Assembly: GCA_038203955.1 (NCBI GenBank)
Contig: JBBRDK010000005.1
Coordinates: forward strand, 6,401 to 70,400
Reading direction: 5' to 3'
Source: Thermoanaerobaculia bacterium
Lineage (GTDB): Bacteria > Acidobacteriota > Thermoanaerobaculia > UBA5066 > Gp7-AA6
DNA length: 64,000 nucleotides
Shown: piece after piece, positions 34,640 to 55,263 of the stretch
How positions within the stretch are numbered: the first letter of the stretch is position 1
Layout of the letters: each line of letters begins with the position of its first letter
The notes under the pieces: model-generated
What the model saw: the letters and a program-made list of their open reading frames with translations, nothing else
Told to the model about the DNA's origin: nothing
The model's database searches: none
Made by a program: the position numbers and the translations under genes

Positions 34640-37412
34640 TCAGAAGCTCACCTTCACGCCGAGCTGGAGCTGCCGCGGGTCGTTGACCGCCGTCGGCTGC
34701 CCGAAAGGTGGGAGAGCCGAAGGAGTTGTTCGGAACCTGGTCGTTCTTCCGGTGAGAAGGTTGAAGGCCACGAGGATCGCCTCCACGGCCACACTGTTCG
34801 TCACGGGAACCTTCGCGACAGGCGCAGGTCCACGGACTCGAAACCGAACCCCTCTCCAGAGTTGCGCGCGACTCCCGCTGGCCGGTCGTTCAGCGTCGAG
34901 TCGCCGTTACGGTCGAACGGGAGCAGCACGTTGAACGGAAGAGCCGAGGCGTAGGTGAAGATGCCGGTCAGCGTCCACCCTTCGGCGAGCGCGCCCCACA
35001 GGCTTTCCTTTCCGCGAACGGGCGAGACCGCGCTCCCTGACAGCGTGACCCGGTGGCGCTGATCGTTGTCCGATCGGCCCCTCTCCGCGGCGACGTCGCG
35101 GTTGTCCTGCGGCGAGCTGAAGAAGAAGTTGCCGGATGTGTCGAAGCTCTTCGAGTACGTGTACGACGCCCGGAGGCTGCCCCATGAAACGGGCCGCTGC
35201 GTGTAGCTCAACGTCACGCCGTCGTACCAGGAGTCCCCGATCGACTGGTACTGCGAGTTGTTCGCGTACGCGGCGTTTGGCCTTCCGAGGTTGAAGACGG
35301 AGGGATTCGTCGTGGTCGGCACGTTGACGTTGCGCGACATGATGATGTGCCTCCCCCGGATGTGCTCGTAACCGATCGACGCGGTCGCCGAGGGCAGGAT
35401 CTGTCGCTCGTACTGCGCCGCGGCCTGAAAAGAGGATCCACTCTGGATGTCGGGATCGATCGTCGTGACGTTCGTCAGCACCCCGGAAGGAAACGACGCG
35501 TAGACGTCGGGGAACACGGGCGGTGCCGGCGAGGTCCGGCTGGCGGGAGTCACCTGAGCGACTCGATACGCAACGCCGTCTCTCTGAAGCGCGTTGGCGA
35601 CGGCGCGCAGGGGAACCGGGTTGTAGAACAGTCCGGCGGTCGCCCGGAGGACGCTGCGGCCGTCGCCCGCCGGATCCCACGCCAGGCCGACGCGGGGGGA
35701 GAGGTTGTCGCGGTCCGTTTGCACCAGAGAGGGAAGAAACTGGAGGTCGTATCGAAGACCGGCGTTGACGTTCACGCGCCGCGAGACTCTCCACTCGTCC
35801 TGCAAAAACGCCCCGACGTTCGAGTTGTCTTGCGGCGTCCCGGGAATCCCGAAAGCCTGCTGGAACGTCGTGTACCGGCCGGCCTGAAAGTCCGCCAGAT
35901 TCCGGAAGGTGTAGACGCCCTGGAGCGCGCCCGGGAAATCGATTCGGACTCGATTGAACAGCGTGTCGACGCCCCCCTTGATCGAGTGGGATCCCAGCAC
36001 GGACGTCACGGCGTCGACGGCCTCCCACATGCTCGTATTGCGGACGGTCGGCGAGTTCGTCGCCGTCCCGAAGCTGGCGATCCCGGAAATGGTCACCGCC
36101 GGGCCGACGAGGTCGTTCGGCGGCGCCGACAGATCGCTCGTCGTCATCTGCCCCCGGGTCTCGTTGAAGACGGAGGGGGAGATCGTCGCCACGTTGCTGG
36201 CTGCCCACGTTTGGTCCGTGTCGGCGAGCCCCGTCGCCCGGCTCGCGTCGTTCAAGCCGCCGACCGTCCGCGCGTTGGCGCTCGAGACCGCGTACCGGCT
36301 GTACCGGAGATTGAGCTGATCGGCGGAGGAGAACGCGTGGTCGAGGCGTCCGAACCAGTTGGTCGTGTCGAGTGTCGTCGCCAGATTGCCCGTGGCGATG
36401 CGGACGCCGGGATAGGACACGGCGTCCAGACGCGCGTTGACAGCCGCCGCGCTGGCGGAGGAAATGGTCACGACGCTCCCGTTTTGCTCCGCGAGCTGCT
36501 CGAAGTTCGCGAAGAAGAACGTCCGATCGCGGACCGCCGGACCTCCGAGCGAGAGACCGTACTGCCGCCGCGAGAAGGGAAACGCCTTCGAAGCGAGGGC
36601 GTTTTTCGCATCCAGGCGGTCATCCCGGAAAAAACCGTACGCGTCCCCGGCGTACGTGTTGGTGCCGGATTGCGTGACGACGCTGATGATCCCCGCGGTC
36701 GCGCGGCCGTACTCCGCGATTCCGCCGGACCGCACCACTTGGAACTCGCGAATCACGTCCTGGCTGTAGAACGTGCCCGCGAGCTCCGCCGCGTCGTCGT
36801 TCGCGGACAGCCCGTCGACGACGAAGGTGTTGTTCAGGTTCCGCTGGCTCGACACGGAAATGCCGGTCCGGGCACCGCGGACGTCTCGGCGAAACGCTGG
36901 TTCGCCCCCGTGTTCGTCCGGGAGACTCCCGGGACGAGCAACGCGAGATCGAGATAGTTGCGCCCGTTCAGAGGCAGGTTCCGGATCTCTTCGGGAGTGA
37001 CGGACTCCGCGACCTGCGTGCGCACCGTCTCGACGAGGGGCGCGCCCGTCACCGTCACCCTCTCCGTTGCGCTCGCCAGGTTCAACCTCACCGGAATCTC
37101 GAGCGCCTGCCCGGCGGCGGCTCGAAAAGGCGTCCGCACGTCGAGAAACCCCTCCTTCCGGATCGAGAGCTCGTAGTCGCCGGCCGGGACGGCCGAGAAA
37201 CGGAATCGGCCTCGCGCGTCGGAAACGGCCGTCACCCGCCGGTTCGTGCCCGGATGAAAGAGGACGACGCCCGCCGCCGGAACGGGAGCGCCGGCGGGGT
37301 CCTCGATGCGCCCTCTCACGGTCGCAGTGTCGACCGTCTGCTGCCCGCCGCAGAGCGCCGCGATCGGGAACAGCAGGGAGAATGCGAGGAGCGCGTGCAG
37401 GCAGCGGCTCAT
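34640..37412 (-). pseudogene. TonB-dependent receptor with carboxypeptidase-regulatory-like N-terminal domain, frame broken twice (~36868 and ~34805)
   Basis: Three collinear pieces. (a) 37412-36834: signal peptide, CarbopepD_reg-like domain, ...NQRFAETSAVPG. (b) 36867-34801: TGISVSSQRNLNNTFVVDGLSANDD...RLSRRFP*. (c) 34805-34640: VTNSVAVEAILVAFNLL...DPRQLQLGVKVSF*, a classic barrel terminus. The span is 2773 nt (3n+1), consistent with two 1-nt losses. Confidence 0.8.
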
Positions 37413-38617
37413 CGAGCCGCCCGTTTCCTGAAAACGTCGAGGGGCCCGGTTTCGGCCACGGCGAGAAGCTCGTTGCCGTTTCGCGCCGTGTAGGAGATAG
37501 CGCTGGCCGATCCCCGGACGGTGATCCGCGGGTCCGCGGCGTCCTTCAGAAGGCGAACGGCCGCGCTCCAGCTCTTTCGATCGGGCTCCAGACCCCGCCC
37601 GAAGACGGACGAACCCGACACGTAGAGCGCGACGAGGCGGTCTTCCGGAAGTACGGCGATGTCGGGATGATTCGGGACGCCCGAGCCTTCCGCCTTCCCG
37701 GCGAGCTCGACACGCGGTGAGAAGCTCTTCCCCCCGTCGGACGAGAACGCCGCGAAGACGCCGGGAACGGCGCCCGTGTACCACGCGACCCAGAGCGCCC
37801 CGGACCGCTCGAGCGCCAGCCTCGGCCCGGAGTCCGGACATCCATCGATCCGCCAGCCATCGTCCGACACCACCACGGAGGGGGGAGCGCTCCCGTTTCC
37901 GTCTCCCACGGCGGCGACCGCGATGTTGCGCAGGTCCTTGCCCTCGAGGTCGCGGTAGGCGATCCAGACGCCCTTTTTCGAATCGGCGGCGACGCTCGTC
38001 GCGCAGCACTGACACGCGCGGGGGTCCACGACCCGATTCGTCTCGAACCGCGCCCCGTCCCCGCTCACGGCCGAGACGACGCCCTGCCCTCCCGCACGGC
38101 TGTCGAGCCACGCCAGCCGCATCCGGCCGGCGGAGTCGATCGCCGTGGAAACCCAGCCGTGCGGCCCCGCGGTCTTGTCGTCGTTGACGGTGACGGGCGC
38201 TCCCCACGTCGAACCGCCGTCGGTGGAGCGCTGGGCGCGAAGCTCCGTATTCCATCGGCCGGGTGCCGTCACGGAATACACGGCCACGAGAGCGCCGCCC
38301 GGAAGGATCTCGAGGGAGGGTCCCGTCTGTGAATGCGCCATCACGGCGGGCGCCGGCGGAGACACGGCGACGGCCGTCCGGTGCCCGCCCGAATCGGCGT
38401 AGCAGAGGCGGCCTCCCCCGGCCTCTTCCCGAACGAAGACCATGCAGAGGTCGCCGGACGCGTTCCATCGCGCCGAGGGGTCGTGGCCCGCCTGGCGCAC
38501 CGCGCGGCCGGCGGCCGGCGGCTGCCCCGCTCCCATCGACCGCAGCGACGGCGACACGGCGTAGAGCGCGATCGCCGCCGCAGCGATGGCAAGGCTTCGT
38601 CTAAAAATGGGCTGCAT
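37409..38617 (-). CDS. Secreted sialidase/BNR-like beta-propeller protein
   Basis: Signal peptide MQPIFRRSLAIAAAAIALYA, Asp-box-like QRSTDGGSTW and FSSDGGKSF, and Cys clusters RACQCCATS and DGCPDSG. ATGA overlap with the receptor gene. Confidence 0.7.
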   Translation of the reverse strand: MQPIFRRSLAIAAAAIALYAVSPSLRSMGAGQPPAAGRAVRQAGHDPSARWNASGDLCMVFVREEAGGGRLCYADSGGHRTAVAVSPPAPAVMAHSQTGPSLEILPGGALVAVYSVTAPGRWNTELRAQRSTDGGSTWGAPVTVNDDKTAGPHGWVSTAIDSAGRMRLAWLDSRAGGQGVVSAVSGDGARFETNRVVDPRACQCCATSVAADSKKGVWIAYRDLEGKDLRNIAVAAVGDGNGSAPPSVVVSDDGWRIDGCPDSGPRLALERSGALWVAWYTGAVPGVFAAFSSDGGKSFSPRVELAGKAEGSGVPNHPDIAVLPEDRLVALYVSGSSVFGRGLEPDRKSWSAAVRLLKDAADPRITVRGSASAISYTARNGNELLAVAETGPLDVFRKRAAR

Positions 38618-38732
38618 GATTCTCCACACTCGGATCGCATCCGGCCGGTTCGCGGCCGGAACGATGGATTCCGGGCCGCCGACGCCTGCCGCTGCGTGCG
38701 GCCGCGCTCCGCCCGGAGTCAGACGAGGAGGA

Positions 38733-39074
38733 TCAGGCTCGAGGAGGAGGGGTGGCGGGAGCGAGCTTAAACGAGCGCGGCGCGGCGGAGACGGGGAATG
38801 AAATCTCCGCGGATCTCTCGAGGGTCAGAAACGGCGAGACCGGAGCGAGAATCGCGGGAAGCGCTCCGCCGAGAGTCACGACTTTCGAATCGGGCATGCA
38901 TCCCCGCAACTGGCACTCTCCTGGGGAGGAGCTCTGCGCCGCCGCGCAGGACGGCATCGAACCGTCTTCGGACGCGGCGCAGCAATCGGGAACGCACTCG
39001 ACCCAATTCGCCAGCGGTCCGCACGAGACGAGCAGAAGGAGAACGACCGCCGCGGAGCGCATCGCGCGGAGCAT
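38733..39074 (-). CDS. Small secreted Cys-rich protein (113 aa)
   Basis: Signal peptide MLRAMRSAAVVLLLLVSC, then 7 Cys within about 45 residues (ECVPDCCAAS...SCAAA...ECQLRGC). It is the first gene of the receptor operon. Confidence 0.5.
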   Translation of the reverse strand: MLRAMRSAAVVLLLLVSCGPLANWVECVPDCCAASEDGSMPSCAAAQSSSPGECQLRGCMPDSKVVTLGGALPAILAPVSPFLTLERSAEISFPVSAAPRSFKLAPATPPPRA

Positions 39075-39429
39075 ATCGCGGGACTCTGACCCTTTCCCGG
39101 GAGCCCGCTCCGAAAAGCGGCTACGGCGTCCGTGCGTCGCCTCGACTCCTGCAGGAGCCTCCCGAGTGGGATCCTGAGCACTCTTCCAGTCACTCGAATC
39201 CGGCATCGCGTGGTTCCGGGGGGTTTCCCCTCCGCGGCGAAAAGGACGCTCTGCTGCTCGAGACCAAGGGCCACATGGTGGACACACGGGCATGAAACTT
39301 TGAGAGTCGGCGGCGCGTCGATCGACTCGCCGCTGCGGGGCCGCCGGCGGCCCCGACGGCGATGCTAGACTGCCGGGGTTGCTCGCCTCCCGACCCGGCC
39401 AGACGGATGTCGAGAAAGTGGAGGTCCGA

Positions 39430-39921: not shown

Positions 39922-40054
39922 CGGCGAGATGGCCCGGCCGACCCGGGTGATTTTTTTGCGAACGAGTCGAGGAGGCCGGCGCCTAATTGTCTGAATGGCC
40001 TGGTTTTCTGAACGGAATGTGGAACGGACGGGTAGTCGGACCGCCGGCAGGACC

Positions 40055-40672
40055 ATGAGGGTCGAGGCGCTCGCGGGGCGGCCGCTCGTCGTTCTGGTCT
40101 TCGGCGCGCTGCTCCTGGGCACCGGCTGCTTCAAAGATCCCCCGACGGCGCCGGCCAGCATCCCGAGCCCCGCGGCGTCGATCACGCCCGAGGCGTCCGC
40201 CACGCCGACGCCCGTTCCTCCGGCGACGCCCGTCGTGTCGGCCTCCCCGACGCCTCCGGCCCCGACGGCGACCGCGATCGCCCCGACCGGCACGCCAACC
40301 GCGGGTGCGACCAGCACGGCCACTCCGTCGCCGACCCCGACCCCGACCTCGACCTCTTCCAGCACTCCGAACCCCGGGGTCTCTCCGACTCCGGTTCCGA
40401 GCGCGACCGCGACTCGTCTGCCGACCTCGAGCCCGACACGCACGGCAACCTCGACCGCGACTCCGAGCCGGACGCCCACGGCCACCGCGACGAACACGCC
40501 TCTTCCCCCGACCGAAACCGCGACTCCGACGCGGCCGGCGCCGCCCACCGCGACGAACACGCCGCTGCCGCCGACCCCGACCCCGACGGCTACGGCGACG
40601 GCCACGTCTCTGTTTCCGTTCACACCGACGAGGACCGCGACCCGCACGCCGACGAGAACGCCCGGCCTCTAG
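40055..40672 (+). CDS. Lipoprotein with a long Pro/Thr-rich low-complexity region
   Basis: MRVEALAGRPLVVLVFGALLLGTGC lipobox, then about 170 aa of P/T/A/S repeats (TATNTPLPPT occurs twice). The opposite-strand GV-rich ORF is rejected. Confidence 0.55.
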   Translation: MRVEALAGRPLVVLVFGALLLGTGCFKDPPTAPASIPSPAASITPEASATPTPVPPATPVVSASPTPPAPTATAIAPTGTPTAGATSTATPSPTPTPTSTSSSTPNPGVSPTPVPSATATRLPTSSPTRTATSTATPSRTPTATATNTPLPPTETATPTRPAPPTATNTPLPPTPTPTATATATSLFPFTPTRTATRTPTRTPGL

Positions 40673-40759: not shown

Positions 40760-42334
40760 TCAGTCTCCCGATTCGGTGGGCCGGGTCTGGACGGGCTTTC
40801 GGCGCGAAAGCCTCAACGCTCCGAGAGCCGTCTCCAGGTCCCTCGCCCGTTTCCGCTGCTGCTCCTCCTGCTCTGCCGCGGCCAGTCGGTGCATCAGCGA
40901 GCTCAAGCGTGCGTCGGGATGCTCGATGATCAAACGGAGGAGGACCTCGTAGTCCCGGACCATCGTCTCGATCGTGGCGTCTTCGAAGAGCTCCGTTTTG
41001 AATTCGAAGGCTCCACTCAACCCTTGCGGCGAAACGAGGAGACCGAGCCTCAGGTCGTGCCGCGTCGCCCCGGCCGGACCTCGATCGAGCTGCCCTCCGT
41101 CGTCGACGAGGGGCGTAACCGTCAGGCCGTGGAGCTCGAGGTCGGGATTGGGAACGTTCTGAAGCACGAACCAGACCTGAAACAAGGGCGAGTGGCTCAA
41201 GCGGCGCTCGGGCTGAAGAGCCTCGACCAGCTTCTCGAACGGCAGGTCCTGGTGCGCATAGGCGTCCAGGGCGACGCAACGGACACGCGAAAGAAACTCG
41301 CGAAACGGCGGATCTCCCGAGAGGTCCAGCCGGAGGACGAGGGGGTTGATGAAGAATCCGATGAGGACTTCCGTCTCGAGCTGGCTTCGACCCGCCGTCG
41401 GCGTCCCAATCACGATGTCTTTCTGGCCGGAATGACGAGAGAGCAGCACGGAGAAGGCGGCGAGCAGAGTCATGTAGAGAGTCGAGTCCTCTCGAAGGCT
41501 CAACTGCCGGAGACCCTCCGCGATCTCCGGCGGAAAAACGAAGGTCCGCCGCGCCCCGCGAAATCCCGCGACAGCCGGCCGCGCGCGATCCGTCGGGAGC
41601 TTCAGGACAGGGAGTGGCCCTCCAAGCTGACGCTTCCAGTAGGAGAGCATCTCGGCGAGGGCTTCTCCGCGGAGCCACTCCTTCTGCCAGGACGCAAAAT
41701 CGGCGTACTGGACCGGCAACTCGGGCAGCGAAGAAGGCCGACCTGCGGCGGCGGAGGCGTAGAGCGCCCCGAGCTCCTGGAAGAGCACGCCCGTCGACCA
41801 GCCGTCCGTGACGATGTGATGCATGGTGAGGATGAAGACGTGTTGCGTCGCGCTCCACCGAAGCAGGACCGCCCGAAACAGGCGATCCGACGTCAGGAAG
41901 AAGGGACGATCCTCTTCGTCCGTCGCCCGTGAACGCGAGACCTCTTCCCGCTCCGCCTCGGAAAGCCCCTCCATCGACACCGTTTCGAGCCGGACCGATC
42001 GCGGCGGATGAACCCTCTGACGGGCTTCTCCCCCCTCCATCTGGAAGGAGGTGCGCAGCATCTCGTGGCGGCGGACGATTTCCGTCAGCGCCGCCTCCAA
42101 CGCCGGCACGTCCAGTTCTCCGGTCAGACGCAGCGCGACCTGGACGTTGTAGGCCGGGTTGCCCGGTTCCAGCTGATCGAGGACCCAGAGTCGTTGCTGC
42201 GCAAACGAAGCCGGCAGGCTGACCGTCGATTCCGCGGGGCCTGCCGGGTCGAACGCGCTGTCGGCGCTCGGCAGTCCCCCGCCTGACGCCCCGGCGTCAG
42301 AGGGCGTCGGGGCGTCTTTTCCGGTCGGGCTCAT
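40760..42334 (-). CDS. Stand-alone NRPS condensation (C) domain protein
   Basis: LPASFAQQRLWVLDQLEPGNPAYNV (C1), MHHIVTDGWS (HHxxxDG, residues 171-180), IGFFINPLVLR. Confidence 0.85.
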   Translation of the reverse strand: MSPTGKDAPTPSDAGASGGGLPSADSAFDPAGPAESTVSLPASFAQQRLWVLDQLEPGNPAYNVQVALRLTGELDVPALEAALTEIVRRHEMLRTSFQMEGGEARQRVHPPRSVRLETVSMEGLSEAEREEVSRSRATDEEDRPFFLTSDRLFRAVLLRWSATQHVFILTMHHIVTDGWSTGVLFQELGALYASAAAGRPSSLPELPVQYADFASWQKEWLRGEALAEMLSYWKRQLGGPLPVLKLPTDRARPAVAGFRGARRTFVFPPEIAEGLRQLSLREDSTLYMTLLAAFSVLLSRHSGQKDIVIGTPTAGRSQLETEVLIGFFINPLVLRLDLSGDPPFREFLSRVRCVALDAYAHQDLPFEKLVEALQPERRLSHSPLFQVWFVLQNVPNPDLELHGLTVTPLVDDGGQLDRGPAGATRHDLRLGLLVSPQGLSGAFEFKTELFEDATIETMVRDYEVLLRLIIEHPDARLSSLMHRLAAAEQEEQQRKRARDLETALGALRLSRRKPVQTRPTESGD

Positions 42335-42350
42335 GAGTCGAGGCAGGCGC

Positions 42351-43637
42351 CTAGATGACCCCGCGCCGTCGCAGGTCCTTCAGTTCCGCCGCGGAAAGGC
42401 CCAACCATTCGCGATACACCTCGTCCGTATGGGCGCCGAGCTCGGGGGGGCCTCGCCGGACGCTGCCGGGAGTCTCCGACAGTTTCACGGGGATACCGAC
42501 CTGCCTCGTGGCGCCGAGGGTTGGATGCGGCGCCTCGACGACCATCCCGCGTTCCGACGCCTGCTCCGACCGGATCGCGTCCTCGACGGAATTGATCCCG
42601 CTGCACGGGATTCCCGCGCGTTTCAGGAGGGAGACCCAGTGCTCCGCGGACTTCGAATTAAAGACGGCTTCGAGGGCCGCGTGGAGCCGCTCCCGCTGCG
42701 ATACCCTGCCGGCGTTCGTCGCGAAGGAAGGGTCCGGCTCGAATCCGGAGGGCGCCAGAGCGTCGCACAGCCGCCGCCAGAGCGCGTCCGTTCCGACCCC
42801 CAGCGCAAACCGCGAGGCCGACGCCTCGAAGACCTCGTAAGGCGCCAGCGACGGATGCATGTTTCCGAGCCTCTTCGGGCTGCCGGTCCCGGCGAGGACG
42901 CTCGAAGCATGGAACGCCATGAGCGAGAGCGCGCTGTCGAGCAGAGCCACGTCCACGAGTTGCCCTTCACCCGACAGGTCGCGCGCCCGCAGGGCCGCCA
43001 GGGTCCCGTAGGCCCCATAGAGGCCGGCGGTCATGTCCGCCAGGGGAACTCCCGCTTTCGTGGGACCTCCTTCCGGATCGCCGGTGACGCTCATGATTCC
43101 GCTCTCCGCCTGGATCGTGAGATCGAATCCCGCCTCGCCCTTTCGAGGGCCAGTCTGCCCGTACCCGGAGATGGCGCAATAAATCAGGCGGCGATTCACC
43201 TCCCGAAGCGCCGCGAAATCCAGCCCGGAACGCGCGAGCGATCCTACCTTGAAGTTTTCAACGAAGACGTCCGCGCGCGCCACCAGGCGCTTCAAAAGCC
43301 GCTGTCCGTCGGGGTGGTGGATGTCGAGCGTCACACTGCGCTTGTTCCGGTTGACGCTCAGAAAATAGGTGCTGTGCCCATCCACGAAGGGTGGCCAGCC
43401 GCGGGCGGGATCTCCCTTCCCGGGCTGCTCGATCTTGACCACGGTCGCCCCCATGTCCCCCAGCAGCATCGTGCAGAACGGTCCCGCGAGCGTCCGCGAG
43501 ACGTCGAGGACCAGCGTCCCCGAAAGCGGTCCGAAGTCGCCCGCCGTGAGTCCTACCTCCGACGCGGTCGCCGGCTTCCTTTGCCGGGACCGGCCGACGG
43601 GCGTCAGGTCCCGACCCTCGCGGCGGCGGCTCGTCAC
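42351..43637 (-). CDS. Family III CoA-transferase (CaiB/BaiF/Frc family)
   Basis: GTLVLDVSRTLAGPFCTMLLGDMGATVVKIEQPGKGD and later family blocks. The GTG start at 43637 gives a ~35-aa N-terminal extension, so the start is uncertain. Confidence 0.85.
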   Translation of the reverse strand: MTSRRREGRDLTPVGRSRQRKPATASEVGLTAGDFGPLSGTLVLDVSRTLAGPFCTMLLGDMGATVVKIEQPGKGDPARGWPPFVDGHSTYFLSVNRNKRSVTLDIHHPDGQRLLKRLVARADVFVENFKVGSLARSGLDFAALREVNRRLIYCAISGYGQTGPRKGEAGFDLTIQAESGIMSVTGDPEGGPTKAGVPLADMTAGLYGAYGTLAALRARDLSGEGQLVDVALLDSALSLMAFHASSVLAGTGSPKRLGNMHPSLAPYEVFEASASRFALGVGTDALWRRLCDALAPSGFEPDPSFATNAGRVSQRERLHAALEAVFNSKSAEHWVSLLKRAGIPCSGINSVEDAIRSEQASERGMVVEAPHPTLGATRQVGIPVKLSETPGSVRRGPPELGAHTDEVYREWLGLSAAELKDLRRRGVI

Positions 43638-43653
43638 CGCGGCACGCAGGGAC

Positions 43654-46600
43654 TCATCTCGCGACCAGCGGCCCCGGCGCTGCCTCGCGAGCCGTGATGT
43701 CTTTCAACTTGTTCAACTGGTACAGGCTGCTCATGATCGACTCGAAGTCGAGACCGAAATCGATGAGGCAGGTGATCTCGTCGACGCCGATCGCGCTCAG
43801 GACGGCGACGCGCTCGCGACAGCTGGCGACGGTCCCGACCAGCCCCCGCTCGTCGAAGAGTCTCTCCGTGGCCTGCTTGGTCAGAAAGTCCCGGTCCTCT
43901 TCCGTGGGCGCGAAATCCTCACCCGACCCGCGGACCCGGTCGGCCTGAAGACCGAGGTTGACGAGAAGGTAGTCGAGGTACGCGCCTCCCACTTTTTCCC
44001 GCACCGTTTCCATATGCTCCGCGAGAAACGTGTGCAGACTGACGGTGACCTGCCCCGTCGCGGGATCGTGTCCCTGCCTGGCCCTCGCCTTCCTGTAGAT
44101 GGCGATCTTCGGCGCCAGCTCCGCGACCGACATCAGGAACATCGACGTGATGACGTTCGCGCCGATCTCGCCGGCCTTCTCGAACGTCGCGTCGGATTGA
44201 CACGAGAGCCAGATGGGAAGCGACCGCTGGACCGGCCGCGGGTAGGTCATCACCTCGATCGGGTTTCCTGCGCCGTTCGGGAGCGTCATGGGCCGGCCCG
44301 CCCACAGCTCACGGACGATCCCGATGCGCTCGAACATGACGTTCCGGCGATCCACGTAGGTCGAGGGAGACAGAGCGAAATCATTGACGTGCCAGCCTGA
44401 CGCGAAGGAGACCCCGACTCGTCCGCCGGAGAGGTTGTCGACGACCGACCACTCCTCGGCCACCCGAATCGGGTCCTGGAGCGGCAACACCACGCTCGCC
44501 GCGCGAATCTGGATCCGGCTCGTGACGGCGGCGATCGCCGCGCCGACGACGGCCGGGTTCGGGTAGAGGCCCCCGAAGGAGTGGAAGTGCCGCTCGGGCG
44601 TCCAGACTGCCGCGTATCCATGCTGGTCGGCGAACCGAGACGCCTCGAGCACCAGCCGGTACTTGTCCGGCGAGTCCGCGGATCCGTCGGCCGAAAAGAA
44701 GAACAGGCTGAACTGAAGCGGCGAATCGGAGCCCCGTGCCGCGGACGTTTTCGATGCCGCCGCGCGCGGCGGAGCCGCCGGCGCTGCGGGGCGGTCCACG
44801 CGGGGAGGCGGAGCTGGATTTTCCGGCGAGGCAGTCGGCTGAGACCGGCGCGCGATCGGCGCGCGGACCGGCGATTTCCCTCGGCCGCGTTCCACGGCCG
44901 CGCAGACCTCGGCAAACGTCGGCGTGTCGAAGAGCGCGCGCAGCGGAAGTTCCACGCGGAGGTCTTTCCGGACTCGAGCGACCAGGAGGGAGGCGCGGAT
45001 CGAATCGCCGCCCAGGCGAAAAAAATTTCCATCCGGATCCGCGCGATCGACTTTGAGAAGATCGCACCAGATCTTAGCCAGCGACTCCTCGACCGAGACC
45101 GTCTTCTCCGGCGACGGCTCATCCGCCGGGCCTGGAGCGCTGCCCGCGGGCGCGAGGCCGAGCGCCTGCGCGAGTCCGATGCGACGCAGCTTTCCCGTCG
45201 GCCCCTTGGGGATTTCTCCGAGGATGAGAATCTGACGCGGAACCTTGTACTCGGCGAGCCGCCTGGCCGCGAACTGACGAAGGTCGGCCTCCGACGCCGA
45301 GGCGCCCGGCCGCAGCACGACGGCCGCCGCGACGTCTTCGCCGAGGGTCGGGTGCGGCACCGCGAACGCAACCGCCTGCGCCACCGCGGGGTGTCCCATG
45401 AGGGCCTCATCCACCTCGAAGGGCGAGAGCTTTTCGCCGCCGCAGTTGATGATCTCCTTCAAGCGGCCGGTCAAGGAAAGGAACCCGTCCTCGGAAAGGA
45501 CTCCCTGGTCTCCGGTCCGGAACCATCCCCGCGAAAACGACGCCTCGTTGGCCGCGGGGTTGCGGTCATAGCCCTGCATGACGGGCGGGCCCTGGATCAC
45601 GATCTCCCCGGCCTCGCCCGCGGGAAGCTTCTCGCCCGACTCGTTCATGATCGCGACGGACGGCCCTGCCGGGACCCCGACCGAGCCGGCGCGGCGGCGG
45701 CCGGGCGGGAGGGGGTTCGACGTGATTTGAGTGCACTCGGTCATGCCATACGCCTCGATGACCGGACATTTAAACTCCTGCTCCAGTCCCGTCTTGACGG
45801 AGGGCGGGAGAAAAGCGGCGGACGACCGGATGAAACGCAGAGGGCGGTCCTGCAGCGCGACGCGGTTCGACCCGGCGTTCTCGAGGATCGCCTGGTGGAT
45901 CGTGGGAGCGGCCGTGTACCAGGTCGGCCGGAACGTCCTCACCCAGTCGAAGAACTCGGGGATCAGGAGGCCGGGCGTGCTGACGACCGATGCTCCGGCC
46001 ATCAGCGACGAGAGTGTCGCGATGATCAACCCGTGCGCGTGGAAGAGAGGCATCACGTTGATGCAGCGGTCTTCGGGACGGATTTCGAGAGCCACGGCGA
46101 TGTTGTGGGCCGAGGTGCAGAGCTCCCTTTGCGAGAGAAGAACCGCCTTCGGGCGCGAGGTCATGCCCGAGGTGTAGAGAACGAGGGCCGGGTCCTCGGG
46201 GCGCGCGGACACTCCGCCGCGCGCCTCGCCCTGCGCCGGACCGGAAAAGCGGAACCGCCCTGCCGGCGCACCGGGCTCGGGCGCGATCTCGAGGATGGGA
46301 ATGCCGCGGGAGAGCGCCGCCGCCCGGGCGGGAGAATCGACGCCCTCCGAAAGGATCAGCGCGCGGGCGCCGAGATCGTCGAGAAAGAAATCGAACTCCG
46401 GCTGCCGGTATGCCGGATTCAAGGGAGCGCAAATGGCGGCGACGGAGACGCCGAGGAACGCCGCCGCCATGTCCGGGCCGTTCGGCATCACGACGGCGAC
46501 GCGATCCGTCCGCCCGATCCCGGCCCCCTTCAACCGTCCGGCGATCGCGGCGACGGTGGCGGCGAGCTCTCCGTACGTCGCGGGCGGGCGTCCCGGGGCC

Positions 46601-46713
46601 GCCAGCGCGGTCGCTTCGGGGCGCGACGCAACCCGCCGCTCGAGCAGGTCCGTCAGGGTCAGAGCGGGCGGATCGTTCAGGGTGGTCGAGCGAGCGGGCG
46701 TCGAGTGTGTCAC
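43654..46713 (-). CDS. Tridomain NRPS-like enzyme: ANL adenylation domain, PCP, and luciferase-like monooxygenase domain
   Basis: A domain: LVLYTSGMTSRPKAV, YGMTEC, WFRTGDQG, GRLKEIINCGGEKLSPFEVD, PKGPTGKLRR. PCP: FFRLGGDSIRA (Ser571, codon 45003-45001). A Pro/Ala linker is followed by the LLM domain from LQFSLFFF (about residue 666) to the C-terminus. Confidence 0.88.
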   Translation of the reverse strand: MTHSTPARSTTLNDPPALTLTDLLERRVASRPEATALAAPGRPPATYGELAATVAAIAGRLKGAGIGRTDRVAVVMPNGPDMAAAFLGVSVAAICAPLNPAYRQPEFDFFLDDLGARALILSEGVDSPARAAALSRGIPILEIAPEPGAPAGRFRFSGPAQGEARGGVSARPEDPALVLYTSGMTSRPKAVLLSQRELCTSAHNIAVALEIRPEDRCINVMPLFHAHGLIIATLSSLMAGASVVSTPGLLIPEFFDWVRTFRPTWYTAAPTIHQAILENAGSNRVALQDRPLRFIRSSAAFLPPSVKTGLEQEFKCPVIEAYGMTECTQITSNPLPPGRRRAGSVGVPAGPSVAIMNESGEKLPAGEAGEIVIQGPPVMQGYDRNPAANEASFSRGWFRTGDQGVLSEDGFLSLTGRLKEIINCGGEKLSPFEVDEALMGHPAVAQAVAFAVPHPTLGEDVAAAVVLRPGASASEADLRQFAARRLAEYKVPRQILILGEIPKGPTGKLRRIGLAQALGLAPAGSAPGPADEPSPEKTVSVEESLAKIWCDLLKVDRADPDGNFFRLGGDSIRASLLVARVRKDLRVELPLRALFDTPTFAEVCAAVERGRGKSPVRAPIARRSQPTASPENPAPPPRVDRPAAPAAPPRAAASKTSAARGSDSPLQFSLFFFSADGSADSPDKYRLVLEASRFADQHGYAAVWTPERHFHSFGGLYPNPAVVGAAIAAVTSRIQIRAASVVLPLQDPIRVAEEWSVVDNLSGGRVGVSFASGWHVNDFALSPSTYVDRRNVMFERIGIVRELWAGRPMTLPNGAGNPIEVMTYPRPVQRSLPIWLSCQSDATFEKAGEIGANVITSMFLMSVAELAPKIAIYRKARARQGHDPATGQVTVSLHTFLAEHMETVREKVGGAYLDYLLVNLGLQADRVRGSGEDFAPTEEDRDFLTKQATERLFDERGLVGTVASCRERVAVLSAIGVDEITCLIDFGLDFESIMSSLYQLNKLKDITAREAAPGPLVAR

Positions 46714-46765
46714 TTCATCTTCCTCTCTGGAACCGCGAATGAGCCCGGCGGCTGGATCGCGCTCG

Positions 46766-48625
46766 TCACAGGTTCGGCATCTCGAACAGCCGAAGGAAGA
46801 GCCCGAGGGTCAGAACGATCAGAAGCAAGTCCACCTCATAGGGAATATTGAGCATGAAATTTGGATCGGCGTACTGCTTTCGCAACCGTTCGACCTCCGC
46901 GGGGTTGAAATACCCCTGCCGGGAGATGGTGTCATTCGACAGAAGGTCTTCCACCCATTCGGTTTTCAGCCTCAGAAGCTGAGGACTCCCCGGCGAGGCG
47001 AACGGAAATTTTTCACGCTGCGCGATCACCGGGGGCAGGTAGCGCGAGGCGATCTGGCGCAAGGCGTATTTCTCCTGGAAACCTCGAAGCTTCAGGTCCG
47101 GGGGCATCTTCGCGACCGAATCGAGGACCCCGAGATCCAGAAAGGGAAAGCGCCCCTCGACGGAATGCGCCAGGAGCATTCGATCTCCAGCGTCGCCGAG
47201 GAGATGGTCCGCGAGCCTGACCTTCAAGTCCACATACGACCGCTTGTGAATGGGATGCAGTCCGGCGATCTTACGCGGGTCGATGACTCCGAAGCGGATG
47301 AAGTCGAAATCGGCGTAGCGGGCCGTTACCTGTTCCGAAAAAAGCGATCGCTTGACGGCGCGGAGGGCAGATTGATTCGCTTCATAGTGAAAACCGGGAT
47401 CGCCCCACAGCGTCTCTCGCAGGACCGCTTCTTCAGGGGGGGCGGCGCCGGCGTCCTGCTGCTGCCGTCGATACCGGTCGAATCGATAGCTCGTGTATCC
47501 CGCGAACAGCTCGTCGGCGCCTTCGCCCGTCAGAACTACCCGGACGCCTTCCGATTGCGCCGCAGCGGAGAGCGCGTGCGTCGCCGCGTTGTACGTTTCC
47601 TTCAAGGGGCACTCGCAGTGCCAGATGACGTTTGAAAGATTTTCTGCGATGTCGGAGACGTCGAAGTCGATCTGCCGGTGTGGAAACTTCAATTGATCCA
47701 CCATGACCGACTGGTAATCCCGCTCCGCAAAGAACGCGTCGTTAAAAACGACCGAGAAGGTTGTCTTCTCATCGGGAGACACGGCCCGGATCATGCTGGT
47801 CACCAGGGAGGAGTCGAGTCCGCCGCTCAGATAGGCGCCCGCGGGCACGTCGGCCTGGAGGCGGCGCCGGACGGAGGAGAGCAGCCGCTCCTCGAGCTCC
47901 GCCAGGTCCTCGCTCTCCGACCGATGATAGACGGCGTCCGACTCTTTCGGATACAACACGTCCCAGTATTCCGCCGTCCTGACCGCGCCATTGCGAACCT
48001 CCAGGAGGTGGCCGGGCGGAAGGCTCTGGATTGCCTGGAACATCGTTCGCGGACTCACGAGACCGGGGAGGGAAAGAACCTGGTCGAGACCCGTCAGATC
48101 GACTCGGCGCTCGACGAGCGGGTGCACCAGGAGGGACTTGATTTCCGAGGCGAAAAGCAGCGTGTCTCCGACGATCGTGAAGAAGAGCGGTATGACGCCG
48201 AATTGGTCGCGCGCCAGCAGAACGGTTTGCTTTCGTTGATCGAAGATCGCCAGCGCGAATTGCCCGTTCAACAGGTTGAGAAGCGATGACCCTACGTCTT
48301 CGTAGAGATGGACCAGGACCTCGACGTCCGACCGCGAGCGGAAGCGATGACCACGGCCGGCGAGATCGTCCCGCAGGTCCAGATAGTTGAAGATCTCGCC
48401 ATTGCAGACCAGGTGCACCGACTCGTCCTCGTTGGACATCGGCTGGTTTCCGCACGCGGCGTCAATGATGCTCAAACGCCGGACACCAAAACCGACGCGG
48501 TCGTCCACGAAGAATCCCGCGTTGTCCGGCCCGCGGTGAATCAGTCTCTCCGTCATTTGCGCGAGGATGCCTGCGTCGATTCCAGCGGGCTCCCGGACGT
48601 TCACGATGCCGCAGATTCCGCACAT
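46766..48625 (-). CDS. Asparagine synthase (glutamine-hydrolysing)-like amidotransferase
   Basis: MCGICG Ntn Cys2 and YLSGGLDSS PP-loop; 619 aa. Confidence 0.88.
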   Translation of the reverse strand: MCGICGIVNVREPAGIDAGILAQMTERLIHRGPDNAGFFVDDRVGFGVRRLSIIDAACGNQPMSNEDESVHLVCNGEIFNYLDLRDDLAGRGHRFRSRSDVEVLVHLYEDVGSSLLNLLNGQFALAIFDQRKQTVLLARDQFGVIPLFFTIVGDTLLFASEIKSLLVHPLVERRVDLTGLDQVLSLPGLVSPRTMFQAIQSLPPGHLLEVRNGAVRTAEYWDVLYPKESDAVYHRSESEDLAELEERLLSSVRRRLQADVPAGAYLSGGLDSSLVTSMIRAVSPDEKTTFSVVFNDAFFAERDYQSVMVDQLKFPHRQIDFDVSDIAENLSNVIWHCECPLKETYNAATHALSAAAQSEGVRVVLTGEGADELFAGYTSYRFDRYRRQQQDAGAAPPEEAVLRETLWGDPGFHYEANQSALRAVKRSLFSEQVTARYADFDFIRFGVIDPRKIAGLHPIHKRSYVDLKVRLADHLLGDAGDRMLLAHSVEGRFPFLDLGVLDSVAKMPPDLKLRGFQEKYALRQIASRYLPPVIAQREKFPFASPGSPQLLRLKTEWVEDLLSNDTISRQGYFNPAEVERLRKQYADPNFMLNIPYEVDLLLIVLTLGLFLRLFEMPNL

Positions 48626-48914
48626 CGGTCAGGCCGGGAAAGGCCTCGCGCACACGCGCGGAAGCTCCGGCAGGGTCCCCACCGTTCCGGGGCGTCTGAG
48701 GAGGCGCGGTTCCTTCTTCTCCTCCGGCGGTACCCGGGAGACGGCCGCGCGCCGCGGAAATCGCTCTGGAATCGGGCACTCCCGAGCACGGCACGAGTGC
48801 GGCAATTCTTTCTCCCTTCTGCGGATCGTTCGTCAGGAAAACCCCGAATCGAGGCAGGAAAGGCCCCGGAACGAGGTTGGATACCCGGTCGGGGACTTAC
48901 GTCTCCGAATTTTT

Positions 48915-48943
48915 ATCTTATCCCGGACCCCCGCCTACGGGAA
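48915..48943 (-). promoter_or_regulatory. Candidate sigma-70-type promoter for the NRPS-like operon (speculative)
   Basis: This is the only AT-rich patch in the 448-nt gap. The minus strand reads TTCCCG, 17 nt, TAAGAT. That would imply a ~290-nt leader. Confidence 0.25.
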
Positions 48944-49073
48944 TGCTTTGGGGGTCGGAGTCGGACGGCGTTCGAACGCCGGCTGCCACAGCAGGACGAT
49001 GGAAGCCACGGACGGGCGGCGAGGCCGCGACGCGCCGCAGCCTCGCACGCCTCAGAGGCCCATCCGCCCTTTC

Positions 49074-51227
49074 TCAGAAATGCAGGGCAACCTCCGCGAA
49101 GAAGCGGCGGGGGGCCGCGACGTAGAACTGGCTGTCGCCGACTTCGCTCTCCGACGTGTAATGGCGGCTGTCGCCGAGATTCCGGCCGACGAGGGAGATC
49201 CGAAAGCGTTCGAGCTCCCAGCTCACGCCGGCGTCGGTTTCATAGAAGCCGTCCGTGAAAAAGCGGTTGCGGCGATTGAGCGGCCGCCGTCCCTGGTGAC
49301 GCACCGCAACGAACGCGCCCGCTCCGGTGCGGGGGGCATACGAGAGTTTCGCGTTCCAGAGATCGCGGGGAATGAGCTCGAGACGTTTTCCGTCGACCAC
49401 GCGCAGTTCGCCGTCCGGCGTTAGGAATGAAAATCGTATGAATCGGGCATCGTGGTGGGCGTACCCGGCCGAAAAGGACAGGCCGGGGAGCGGCGCGGGC
49501 CTATATCCCACTTCGATCTCCGCCCCCTGAAACCGCTCCGATCCCGCGTTGATCAGCGCGGGGGTTCCGTCCGCGCCCAGATTCGACACCACGAGGTTTT
49601 CGAAGGTCATGTGGAAAAGAGAGAGATCCACGGACACCTGGCGATCGAGCCACCGCGTCTTGAGTCCGACCTCGCCGCTTCGAGTTCTCTCTGGATCGAG
49701 GATGCGGGCGTTCTCGGTCTCCGTCAGGTTCGGCGCCGCCGGCTTGAACGCCGACTTCGCCGCTACGTAGAAATGGACCGAATTCACGCCGCCCGGGCGA
49801 TCGGAGACGAACCGTACGAGACCGCTCACACCGCCCGACCACTTCCCGTCCGATCGTGAATCGCGCGAGACGTCGGCCTCCGGCGCTCCCACCTCCTGAC
49901 CCTGCGCGAAGAGGCGTTCGGACACGGAGTCGAATCGGGCGCCTCCCGTGAACGTGAGGAAGGGCACGGGCGTCCACTCGTCGTTGACGTAGAAGCCCAC
50001 GAACGTCCGCCGGTCCACGAATGACCGGTTGTCGCCGGTGGGCGTGTCCGCGAAGCGCGGCACGACGACGGGTTCGATCTGGAGGTCGATGTCGAACCCC
50101 GTTCCCGAGGCGGTCGTTCGTCCCCACGTGATCGCGGCGCCGCCGACCACCCTGTGGCGGCCGGCGGCCTCGAAGAGCGCGGTGACGTGCAGGTCGTCGT
50201 AGAGAACCGTTTCGTGGGGCTTCAACGAGACTCCCGCCGCCGCCGCGGTGTTTCCTTCGACCGCGCCGACGAAGGAGCGGATCGAGATCTGGTCGTCGCG
50301 CGTGACGCCGAGAACGTTCTCCAGCGAAAGGGAGGCCGACAGGGGCTTCGCGAAGCGGGTCCTCAGGGAGTAGACACGATGGTCGACACGCCCTCCGTCC
50401 ACCCCGTAATTCCGCTCGATCCGAAATCCCGGAAGCGGCTCGCCCGCATCGACCGGCAGCGGCGACCCGAAGAACTGCGTGGTGCGAAAGACGTCGACCA
50501 ATCCCGAGAACTGCCCTCCGCCCGAAATGGGGACGTCGAGCCGCACGCCGCCGCGATCTTCGCGGTAGTCCGTCCGCTGCTGCCAGCCCTTCGCCCGGTC
50601 GAAGGTCCCGAACAGCCGTAGCTTCGCGCCGCCGAGGTCCTGAGTGTGCGACAGGTGCAGGCGCCCTTCGGAGAAAGAGCCTCCGCCGGCACGCACGTCG
50701 CTGCCCTGTGCCGCCGGCCGCGTGAACACCTGGATCATTCCCGCGAAGGCGGACACGCCGTAGAGGGTGCCCTGCGGCCCCTTGACGATCTCGATGCGGT
50801 CGACATCCTCGATGTTGATCTGAGACAGCGACGGATTGAACGGGCCGCCGGCCGGCATTCCATCCACCATCACGAGCAGCGCGTCGAACTCCTTCAGTCC
50901 CCACAGGCCGATATTGGGCAGCCGTCCGCCGTTGTCGCTCCCGAGGCCGGTGTCGACCCCGACGACGTCCTGAAGCGCCTCCGCAAGCGTCTTGACGTTC
51001 TCCCGGCGCAGCTGTTCGCCGGTGATCACCGTCGCCTGCCCCGGGATTTCCGTCTCATGTTCCGGAAGGCGCGTGGCGGAGACGACCACGTCCTCGCGGG
51101 TCGCCGGCGCGGCGGGGGGGGCCGCCGGGGGCGCTGCCTGTCCCTGTCCCCAGGCGGACGTGAGCGCGAACGAGAACAGCGTGATGAGCGATCGTGGCAG
51201 AAAACCGTTTCGTCGCGGCGCGCTCAT
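49074..51227 (-). CDS. TonB-dependent receptor (siderophore-receptor-like)
   Basis: Signal peptide, TonB box EDVVVSATRL, plug IEIVKGPQGTLYG, and barrel ending ...FFAEVALHF*. The start is the ATG at 51227 (residue 156 of the track ORF). There is no N-terminal signalling (STN) extension. Confidence 0.85.
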   Translation of the reverse strand: MSAPRRNGFLPRSLITLFSFALTSAWGQGQAAPPAAPPAAPATREDVVVSATRLPEHETEIPGQATVITGEQLRRENVKTLAEALQDVVGVDTGLGSDNGGRLPNIGLWGLKEFDALLVMVDGMPAGGPFNPSLSQINIEDVDRIEIVKGPQGTLYGVSAFAGMIQVFTRPAAQGSDVRAGGGSFSEGRLHLSHTQDLGGAKLRLFGTFDRAKGWQQRTDYREDRGGVRLDVPISGGGQFSGLVDVFRTTQFFGSPLPVDAGEPLPGFRIERNYGVDGGRVDHRVYSLRTRFAKPLSASLSLENVLGVTRDDQISIRSFVGAVEGNTAAAAGVSLKPHETVLYDDLHVTALFEAAGRHRVVGGAAITWGRTTASGTGFDIDLQIEPVVVPRFADTPTGDNRSFVDRRTFVGFYVNDEWTPVPFLTFTGGARFDSVSERLFAQGQEVGAPEADVSRDSRSDGKWSGGVSGLVRFVSDRPGGVNSVHFYVAAKSAFKPAAPNLTETENARILDPERTRSGEVGLKTRWLDRQVSVDLSLFHMTFENLVVSNLGADGTPALINAGSERFQGAEIEVGYRPAPLPGLSFSAGYAHHDARFIRFSFLTPDGELRVVDGKRLELIPRDLWNAKLSYAPRTGAGAFVAVRHQGRRPLNRRNRFFTDGFYETDAGVSWELERFRISLVGRNLGDSRHYTSESEVGDSQFYVAAPRRFFAEVALHF

Positions 51228-51832
51228 GGCCTCGCCTCTCGCGCTTCCGACCCGGCGGGATTGGCTCCAGTCATCGTCTCCATGAAGTGAGAAGTCGTGC
51301 CGGCGAGATGGCGCAGAACGATTCTCGCCCGCTTCCACCGGCCGGCGGCACTTCGGTGCATTCCCTTGGGCAGGCGGATCCCGAGCTTCGCGAGCGCGAG
51401 GCACTCGATCTGCCGCACCCGCTCCCGCGTCAACCCGAGCTCGAGGGCGATTTTCGCCAGCGGCCGGGGAGGGCCGGCGAGCCCCAGGCTCGCACCCAGA
51501 ACGCGGATCTCCCGCGCGGTGAGATCTCCCGGGGAGGATTGGATCTGGAGAGCGAGGAGGTCGCTTTCCCAGACGGCCAGAGGCTGTTCCTGCCGGCAAT
51601 CGCATTCCGCCTCGCGCCGTTCGGCCGCCGCCGGTGAGGCGGAGGTGAGGGCGCGGGCGGCTGCTTCCCCATGCTTCTCCAGCCACAGCCACCCTTTCAT
51701 CCGGATCTCGAAGCTCGGACTCGCGGAGCTCGCGAGGACCTCGGCGAGCGACTCGATCAGGGCGCCGTGTCCCTCGAAGCGATCGCGGTCGTCGCTATCC
51801 CGCGGAGAGCACGCTTTCAATGAGTGCGTCAT
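51224..51832 (-). CDS. Protein with a sigma-70 region-4-like HTH only
   Basis: LTAREIRVLGASLGLAGPPRPLAKIALELGLTRERVRQIECLALAKLG resembles region 4.2 of group 1-3 sigma factors. I can see no region 2/3 motifs. ATGA overlap with the receptor start. Confidence 0.55.
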   Translation of the reverse strand: MTHSLKACSPRDSDDRDRFEGHGALIESLAEVLASSASPSFEIRMKGWLWLEKHGEAAARALTSASPAAAERREAECDCRQEQPLAVWESDLLALQIQSSPGDLTAREIRVLGASLGLAGPPRPLAKIALELGLTRERVRQIECLALAKLGIRLPKGMHRSAAGRWKRARIVLRHLAGTTSHFMETMTGANPAGSEAREARP

Positions 51833-55097: not shown

Positions 55098-55263
55098 TCG
55101 AGTGTTCGCAAGGGTACACCAGAGGGTGCGACCGGCATCTGGGTGGTCCGCTTCGAGGCGTCGCGATGCCGCAGCGGCAGCGTTGGGACCGATCCAGACA
55201 CGTCCGCCGCATGAGTTGATCGACGCGCCCTCGCCGAAGGATCCGACTCTGGCCGCCCAAACC

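Follow-up and report, generated by a model that had tools for sequence, protein, structure and literature searches.

Positions 40760-48625 of a 64-kb stretch of contig JBBRDK010000005.1 from a Thermoanaerobaculia bacterium (the whole stretch is called the window below) carry a cassette of four minus-strand open reading frames (ORFs). In order of transcription these encode an AsnB-like amidotransferase, a tridomain protein made up of an adenylation (A) domain, a peptidyl carrier protein (PCP) and a luciferase-like monooxygenase (LLM) domain, a family III CoA-transferase, and a free condensation (C) domain. With moderate confidence, the four genes are read here as the initiation ('capping') unit of a nonribosomal peptide synthetase (NRPS) pathway, which in this genome would be detached from the remaining assembly line. 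The cassette appears to be an initiation unit for siderophore-like beta-hydroxy-Asp peptides, of a known kind with an unprecedented enzyme set, present here in a derived orphan form. It would be a rare but conserved NRPS start in which a short oxidised polar acid takes the place of the usual fatty acid. No pathway is described that combines an A domain derived from oxalyl-CoA synthetases, an LLM domain at the loading carrier, a CoA-transferase under translational coupling and a C domain predicted to act in trans. To our knowledge, almost none of the natural products and iron-uptake molecules of Acidobacteria, which abound in soil, are known.

The cassette and its relatives

The genes of the cassette are separated by 52, 16 and 16 nt (AsnB-like to tridomain to CoA-transferase to C), and each has only one start codon within its initial 30-50 codons. 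All four ORFs are intact, and their translations carry complete catalytic motifs: MCGICG and SGGLDSS in the AsnB-like protein, GGDSI with Ser571 in the carrier, GFDLTIQAESG with Asp172 in the CoA-transferase and HHIVTDGWS in the C domain. The gene set, gaps, domains and motifs given in the initial annotation of this DNA are thus confirmed by ORF, Pfam, NCBIfam and motif reading, with Pfam domains present in all four genes and TIGR04020 above its cut-off. The operon ends at the C gene, since the two ORFs beyond it lie on the plus strand and run towards it. In tblastn searches of the 64 kb with A, PCP, C and LLM parts, the cassette is the sole match, and no Pfam match to a thioesterase (TE), reductase (R), phosphopantetheinyl transferase (PPTase) or MbtH is found among the ~45 larger ORFs with coding-like G+C at third codon positions (GC3), a set that does not include every ORF. 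The statement in the initial annotation that the window has no TE or R domain, second carrier, PPTase or MbtH holds in these searches.

The nearest public relatives of the window, which has a G+C content of 64-71%, are metagenome-assembled genomes of Acidobacteriota. Eight fetched loci from relatives were compared (L001, L002, L169, L003, L007, L170, L171 and L006; percentages are tridomain identity). The full gene order is found in L001 and L002 (both 89%), L003 (67%), L007 (66%), L170 (65%) and L171 (52%), in the last with the C domain fused to TauD. The contig of L169 (77%) ends inside the CoA-transferase gene, and L006 (65%) has the last three genes only, without the AsnB-like gene. The order AsnB-tridomain-CoA-transferase-C thus recurs in relatives, and chance adjacency, the outcome that the initial annotation had proposed to check by synteny, is not borne out.

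The cassette is rare. Among 5.8 billion protein clusters (90% identity), its clades comprise about 20 clusters, and all named members are Acidobacteriota. The CoA-transferase clade has 21 clusters at 59% identity or more, followed by a drop to at most 53% in abundant housekeeping paralogues; the AsnB-like clade has 20 clusters at 62% or more, followed by at most 57%; and the tridomain clade has ~16 clusters before its identity drop. A scan of GTDB representative genomes with the tridomain alignment recovers distant LLM domains only (at most 59%), many of them monooxygenase (MOx) domains inserted within A domains, and a CoA-transferase is present at none of 80 GTDB loci with these more distant LLM domains. 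In JGI metagenomes, a scan with the alignment of the cassette CoA-transferase finds paralogues only (at most 51%), with no NRPS neighbours; 80 metagenome loci holding the nearest other CoA-transferases contain no NRPS parts. A literature search on the gene combination, TIGR04020 and Atu3671 found no match, in agreement with the earlier statement that the four-gene set could be matched to no characterised pathway.

In the more distant relatives the cassette is embedded in large NRPS clusters. The gene upstream of it in L006, L007 and L170 encodes C*-A-PCP-E, where E is an epimerization domain and C* is a C-like domain that precedes an Asp A domain, reads LPALCAD at the HHxxxDG site and so lacks the catalytic His. 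The A-domain code in the embedded modules, DLT.(V/I)GH(I/V)GK, is an Asp code, the carrier is of the GGDSI type, and the E domain reads HHLAVDxVSWR, two of the three also having EGHGRE. L006 and L170 have a TauD gene in front of the C*-A-PCP-E gene, and none is present in the fetched stretch of L007. The gene after the free C domain in these three loci opens with a C domain of DCL type (LSPMQQGILFH). The L171 cluster begins with the cassette, which follows MbtH; here the protein following the C-TauD fusion carries C* and an Asp A domain with no E domain, then an LCL-type C domain. L003 has a partial C*-A(Asp-type) module directly after the free C domain, and a TE module upstream. An acceptor module is thus present in L003, L006, L007, L170 and L171, and absent from the window and L001. 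The 64-kb window has no TauD, His-less C-like domain, Asp-specific A domain or release domain; L006, L170 and L171 have all of these but the release domain.

Where an E domain is present the next C domain is DCL, and where there is none it is LCL, which fits a starter order. As C* lacks the catalytic His, the free C domain would be the sole competent catalyst of the first condensation. The only consistent order of action starts with loading by the tridomain and transfer by the free C domain, acting in trans, and goes on to C*-A(Asp)-PCP(-E) together with TauD and from there to the next module; this order would make the free C domain the catalytic C domain of the first (beta-hydroxy)Asp module. 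To judge from these architectures, the cassette is normally the initiation unit of a larger NRPS. The His-less C-like domains are putative interface domains. Beta-hydroxylase 'interface' domains are recognised by antiSMASH 8 (PMC12230676), and a C-TauD protein followed by the rest of a beta-hydroxy-Asp module has been described in siderophore clusters (PtcB, PMC7100376; ccsJK/ccsL, cyanochelin C preprint). A metallophore-like role, suggested in the initial annotation, is borne out as a fit, in that the relatives carry TauD and Asp modules as beta-hydroxyaspartate siderophore clusters do.

The window and L001 are collinear in the cassette and past it, at ~85% nucleotide identity, and the Asp module is missing from both. 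Between these two orphan copies (dS 0.39-0.52), dN/dS is 0.087 for the AsnB-like gene, 0.142 for the whole tridomain, 0.068 for the LLM domain alone, 0.130 for the CoA-transferase and 0.148 for the free C domain. Since dN/dS is low at this dS, the cassette has been kept functional since the divergence from L001, and this purifying selection implies that the unit is still in use. In a neighbour-joining tree, an orphan clade (window, L001 and L169) is sister to an embedded clade, with the embedded L171 outside, although with no bootstrap support; this topology suggests that the orphan state is derived. The cassette is thus a natural experiment, in which one unit occurs both embedded in assembly lines and stranded, with selection keeping it in both states.

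Predicted enzymology of the four genes

The tridomain gene (43654-46713, minus strand, 1019 aa) was delimited by Pfam, NCBIfam and motifs, and Pfam places AMP-binding at residues 24-382, AMP-binding_C at 433-508, PP-binding at 544-607 and Bac_luciferase at 669-979. The A domain spans 45190-46644 (aa 24-508) and is of the ANL acyl-activating type. The carrier spans 44893-45084 (aa 544-607), with the codon of Ser571 at 45001-45003, and the LLM domain 43702-44712 (aa 668-1004, TIGR04020). The same architecture is seen in 35 full-length homologues, in all of which the A10 lysine K508 and S571 are invariant. Ser571, the phosphopantetheine site, lies within FFRLGGDSIRA, and G568, G569 and S571 are invariant in the alignment of homologues. 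The A4 region reads FHAHG in place of FDxS, so that the amino-group-binding Asp is missing. The protein therefore has a CoA-ligase-type (ANL) loading A domain with a fused GGxS carrier, and the earlier description of a non-amino-acid ANL domain joined to a carrier and an LLM domain stands on the Pfam, FHAHG and AAE3/MatB matches.

The best Protein Data Bank (PDB) match of the A domain is AtAAE3 (5ie0, 375 bits), followed by MatB (205 bits), and its score against the FadD7 model NF004511 is 404.5 bits, under the cut-off of 650. Stand-alone bacterial homologues are 54-55% identical, and one of them adjoins a PanE-like reductase. Oxalate is contacted by two residues, Ser289 and His319, which are conserved solely in oxalyl-CoA synthetases (PMC8905533). 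AtAAE3 Ser289 corresponds to Ala299 in the tridomain, and His319 is either aligned to Gln329 (HMMER) or lost by a one-residue deletion relative to the bacterial homologue motif EATHQM. Further changes in the pocket relative to AAE3, Val215 to Ala and Ala313 to Gly, enlarge it. The signature FHAHG / SSAAF / YGMTECT-QIT co-varies with the cassette, while tridomains without a CoA-transferase read ECLYAT. On this sequence relationship, the A domain is judged to descend from a bacterial oxalyl-CoA synthetase, with loss of the Ser and His that bind oxalate, and its substrate is predicted to be a short polar acid somewhat larger than oxalate, with a distal group that is possibly neutral. Three other substrates were considered and ruled out: oxalate by the pocket residues, as Ser289 and His319 are not conserved; a long-chain fatty acid, as for a fatty acyl-AMP ligase (FAAL), because the closest relatives are AAE3 and MatB; and an amino acid because there is no equivalent of Asp235. 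The pocket signature, together with the cassette-specific CoA-transferase clade, offers a handle for finding the product.

L172 (979-4865) holds a tridomain of 47% identity in which the Gln of the pocket is retained. It is flanked by a GNAT acetyltransferase, and a C domain, 51% identical to the free one, comes directly after it. With no CoA-transferase, L172 is an intermediate architecture.

The LLM domain scores 450.3 bits against TIGR04020 (MupA/Atu3671; cut-off 244.45) over model positions 1-341 of 341, and 354 bits against the structure of the PuwE Ox domain (6KET). PuwE Ox is predicted to install the 2-hydroxyl on the carrier-bound 3-amino acyl chain of puwainaphycins (PMC4219810). The LLM domain would, by this relationship, oxygenate the carrier-bound acyl group at the alpha carbon. 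The oxidation of a tethered acyl unit proposed in the initial annotation is upheld as a family match, the closest structure being itself a predicted alpha-hydroxylase.

The free C domain (40760-42334, minus strand, 524 aa; Condensation, E 3e-107) has HHIVTDG at 41801-41821, and is flanked by two tails, one N-terminal and of low complexity (~38 aa), the other C-terminal, charged and helical (~40 aa). Its C1 motif SFAQQRLW and its HHIVTDGWS are those of the LCL type, motifs being a usual guide to C-domain subtype. The best PDB matches are Txo2 (333 bits), Txo1, DhbF-like and TycC6, and VibH is not among the 58 PDB sequences that match at E of 1e-5 or below. HHIxTDGWS is kept in the orthologues of L003, L006, L007 and L170; in L171 the orthologue is fused to TauD. 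By these matches the free C domain is an ordinary LCL elongation type. Release by this domain onto a free amine had been put forward earlier; the LCL type, the missing match to VibH and the PCP-bound Asp acceptor in relatives speak against free-amine release.

The AsnB-like glutamine-dependent amidotransferase (46766-48625, minus strand, 619 aa) consists of GATase_7 and Asn_synthase domains, with an N-terminal nucleophile, Cys2, the glutaminase part at ~48128-48625, the synthetase part at ~46865-47899 and the PP-loop SGGLDSS at 47807-47827. It is of the class II AsnB type (TIGR01536, 441 bits, cut-off 267), but scores 308.8 bits against the housekeeping asparagine synthase B model NF006949, under its cut-off of 499. 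The best PDB match is the hydroxyamidotransferase TsnB9 (7ylz, 193 bits); E. coli AsnB, to which the C-terminal half aligns poorly, comes lower at 168 bits. AsnB-like genes of 46-49% identity head operons on Streptomyces plasmids that contain NRPS-type parts (L176 12001-18693, L177 12001-18831). On the evidence of these operons the AsnB subfamily is natural-product associated, with partner genes that differ from those of the cassette. One operon encodes, besides an A-PCP protein, a fusion of a PP-loop ATPase with a His-less C-like domain, and the other a carbamoyltransferase and a stand-alone TIGR04020 LLM.

The family III CoA-transferase (42351-43637, minus strand, 428 aa) matches Pfam CoA_transf_3 (PF02515) over model positions 1-366 of 366 (E 2e-130, 435 bits). 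Its catalytic Asp172 (43122-43124), within GFDLTIQAESG, is invariant across five orthologues. The best PDB matches are dicarboxylate enzymes, SUGCT, formyl-CoA transferase and YfdE. Against the NCBIfam equivalogs for succinate-glutarate, CoA:oxalate, formyl-CoA and mesaconate transferases, every score is under the cut-off (the best are 340 vs 750, 290 vs 522 and 278 vs 700), so a substrate is not assignable from them. The CoA-transferase, to which the initial annotation gave no role, is the most tightly coupled partner of the tridomain: in L006, L007, L169, L170 and L171 the tridomain stop and its own start share 4 nt. On account of this coupling it would supply or recycle the cap acid.

Of the predicted steps, loading, oxygenation at the alpha carbon and transfer to an amine by the C domain have reasonable support. 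The A domain, whose type is clear, would adenylate a short, polar carboxylic acid, a C3-C4 dicarboxylate or its half-amide being the most likely, and load it onto its own carrier at Ser571. The fused, FMN-dependent LLM domain would then, going by its family, hydroxylate the carbon beside the thioester. The free LCL domain would pass the oxidised acyl group to an amine, which the architecture of the relatives indicates to be the PCP-bound Asp or beta-hydroxy-Asp of the module with the dead C-like domain. In this genome, where the Asp module does not lie within the 64 kb, the acceptor may either sit on a module encoded at another place or be a free amine or amino acid. With low confidence, the AsnB-like enzyme may turn the remaining free carboxylate into a carboxamide, either at the distal end of the cap or on the Asp side chain. 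The least certain step is that of the CoA-transferase, which might interconvert the cap acid and its CoA thioester and so feed the A domain.

Rival readings and known systems

Several points weigh against the cassette as an initiation unit. Neither a release enzyme (TE or R) nor the acceptor of the C domain, the Asp module, is found in the 64-kb window. LCL domains normally take aminoacyl or peptidyl donors, not hydroxy-acyl ones. The Asp codes are to be read with the proviso that the fourth position of specificity codes is unreliable, and the interface label of the His-less domains is provisional. Roles for the CoA-transferase and the AsnB-like enzyme are assigned by analogy only, and L006 has no adjacent AsnB gene, yet its A-domain pocket is identical, so amidation would be a tailoring step after loading. 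Moreover, stand-alone tridomain genes without a C domain occur in L008 (10001-12838) and L009 (9995-12952). Their pocket reads ECLYAT, and their neighbours are solute-binding proteins and Amidohydro_2, with no C domain or NRPS nearby. This tridomain evidently turns over without a condensation partner, in a separate, uncharacterised use.

The orphan layout could alternatively be a self-contained minimal pathway, in which the tethered acyl group is oxidised, the C domain releases it onto a soluble amine or amino acid, and the AsnB-like enzyme amidates it, to give a secreted alpha-hydroxy-amide metallophore that is re-imported by a TonB system. This is held as a tentative and rather unlikely alternative. 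It agrees with the lack of a second carrier, A domain or release domain in the 64 kb, and with an orphan layout that is common to L001 and L002 and under purifying selection. A TonB-dependent receptor lies directly upstream in the same direction, and its best full-length match is a siderophore-receptor model. The free C domain is also the most diverged cassette protein relative to the embedded orthologues (51-58%), as would fit a changed acceptor. However, it is a standard LCL domain with no detectable relation to the VibH-like free-amine type, and the acceptor is a PCP-bound Asp in all six relatives counted as having sequence past the C gene, among them L003, L006, L007, L170 and L171. The adjacency of the receptor does not hold in L169, its score is under the family cut-off, and TonB receptors are frequent, a second one lying 12 kb off. 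In a more speculative version, which we consider improbable, the CoA-transferase acts on the cap thioester chemistry itself, and the orphan cassette supplies all four enzymes needed to make a new, very small chelator from a free amino acid. CoA might here serve as a transient protecting group while the AsnB-like enzyme amidates one end of a symmetrical dicarboxylate. Alternatively, the thioester might be moved from the hydroxylated end of a dicarboxylate to the opposite end, as by mesaconyl-CoA C1-C4 transferase. Such a shift could occur even on the pantetheine arm of the carrier, exposing an alpha-hydroxy-carboxylate or alpha-hydroxy-amide metal-binding head.

An NRPS protein is directly upstream of the cassette in L006, L007 and L170, and a related tridomain lies between elongation modules in L004, so the unit might instead be an in-line ester-forming module. 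The alpha-hydroxyl made by the LLM domain would then be the nucleophile and would accept, through the free C domain, an acyl or peptidyl group from upstream or an acyl-CoA donor (a depsi bond); the CoA-transferase could give an acyl-CoA donor. This is quite improbable: the upstream proteins end in E, not C, and open with His-less C-like domains, by reason of which they would need the free C domain themselves; the cassette of L171 opens its cluster, after MbtH; and the pattern of E then DCL, or no E then LCL, fits the starter order. Decay or a chance neighbourhood, with the AsnB-like protein as the asparagine synthetase of the cell and the CoA-transferase belonging to primary metabolism, would explain why the rest of the NRPS is missing from the window. 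The AsnB-like protein does pass the TIGR01536 cut-off, and its GC3 (0.765) is below that of its neighbours; the nearest CoA-transferases outside the cassette are abundant genes of housekeeping type. Nevertheless, all four ORFs are intact with dN/dS of 0.09-0.15 at dS of ~0.4-0.5, the gene order is kept down to 52% identity, both enzymes fall in cassette-specific clades of matching size, and the AsnB-like protein reaches only 309 bits where the cut-off for E. coli-type AsnB is 499. Decay or chance is thus very improbable.

For the initiation unit, the closest known parallels are the clusters of acyl-capped beta-hydroxyaspartate siderophores of the cupriachelin, taiwachelin, potashchelin and cyanochelin type. 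These share with the relatives the series of acyl-loading unit, C domain and TauD-hydroxylated Asp module, including the L171-style C-TauD fusion with the remainder of the module on the next protein, and the TonB receptor adjoining the cassette in the window is a further likeness. They differ in that they load fatty acids through FAAL or CoA-ligase (CAL) domains, in contrast to the oxalyl-CoA-synthetase-like A domain with a small polar pocket seen here, and that they lack an LLM domain at the loading carrier, a family III CoA-transferase and an AsnB-like gene. The window differs from them in turn by having no Asp module, TauD or TE. The MOx/Ox domains of the PuwE, MicD and MtaG type, as well as MupA (TIGR04020), belong to the same LLM family and lie beside a carrier, with oxygenation expected alpha to the thioester; however, the known examples act on beta-amino fatty acyl or glycyl-peptidyl groups in large synthetases, whereas the domain here is C-terminal to A-PCP and would act on a short acid. 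The best relatives of the A domain (375 bits) are oxalyl-CoA synthetases (AtAAE3, LsOCS, yeast Pcs60 and bacterial FadD7-like proteins), which make a CoA ester, whereas the A domain here is predicted to give a carrier-bound thioester and has not kept Ser289/His319.

A fused, LLM-less form of the loading logic is seen in abundant, uncharacterised A(AAE3-like)-PCP-C(LCL)-A-PCP proteins of ~1700 aa from cyanobacteria, Poribacteria, Binatia and others. Their A-PCP part is 52-59% identical to that of the tridomain, with a GGDS-type carrier, and their C domain is 45-52% identical to the free C domain. They differ in being one fused chain, in having no LLM domain and in keeping the Ser289 equivalent. 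The one such context inspected, in Iningainema tapete, has neither the CoA-transferase nor the AsnB-like gene and gives no clue to the substrate. DdaH (dapdiamide) and OxyD (oxytetracycline) are AsnB homologues that amidate a distal carboxylate. Compared by description, the dapdiamide DdaG/DdaH and oxytetracycline OxyD logic is similar in pairing an enzyme that adenylates a small dicarboxylate with an AsnB-like amidotransferase (DdaG is cited in PMC12568646); dapdiamide assembly differs in being NRPS-independent, and both systems are without an LLM domain or CoA-transferase. VibH of vibriobactin, the textbook case of acylation of a soluble amine by a free-standing C domain and the model for the release proposed earlier, is alike in the free C domain and separate A/carrier pair, but the free C domain here is an LCL elongation type.

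Neighbouring genes and other features of the window

The TonB-dependent receptor upstream of the cassette (49074-51227, minus strand, 717 aa) has a signal peptide and plug and barrel domains. Its start is at 51227, not 51692, with an ATGA overlap with the upstream sigma-like gene, and 448 nt separate it from the AsnB-like gene. The match to TIGR01783 is full length at 152.5 bits, under the cut-off of 223.5. Adjacency of receptor and cassette is seen in L001 and L002 only and not in L169, and TonB receptors are frequent in this genome. No Rfam family, sigma-70-like promoter or Fur box (up to 3 mismatches) was found in or around the cassette. The receptor, taken in the initial annotation as a pointer to re-import of a metallophore, is thus a weak one, being adjacent in the 89% relatives only, below its family cut-off and without a Fur box. 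The upstream gene encodes a small sigma-70 region-4 protein (51224-51832, minus strand, 202 aa), whose stop overlaps the receptor start and which is 66% identical to the L001 copy, with dN/dS of 0.31. It is uncertain whether the receptor and the sigma-like gene belong to the system. Further upstream, in the same direction as the cassette, a 645-aa protein (53394-55331, minus strand) with sub-threshold matches to B12-binding and radical-SAM domains is conserved in L001.

The G+C content falls to 0.64 at 46000-50000, compared with ~0.68 on both sides, and the GC3 of the AsnB-like gene is 0.765 compared with 0.79-0.84 in the other cassette genes. These lower values may be a trace of separate origin.

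Next to the 3' end of the operon, a Pro/Thr-rich, lipoprotein-like ORF (39995-40672, plus strand) has a signal sequence, a Cys and TPTPTATAT-type repeats, and its counterpart in L001 is at 16034-16885. Gene calls of 94 and 186 aa located 3' of the C gene in L001 were rejected as V/G/A-rich reverse-strand artefacts of this PT-rich lipoprotein gene. An Oar-like TonB receptor at 34801-38468 (minus strand) is split across two overlapping reading frames, with CarboxypepD_reg in the ORF at 36834-38468 and an OMP_b-brl_4 barrel in the ORF at 34801-36855, and is probably either a pseudogene with a frameshift or an error of assembly. It sits in a stretch of ~4.6 kb (34756-39330) that is missing from the 85%-identical L001. 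Elsewhere in the window, an ORF of 687 aa (9934-11997, minus strand) carries GreA/GreB domains at aa 539-673 only, preceded by an N-terminal extension of ~530 aa that has no Pfam match and a coding-like GC3 of 0.86.

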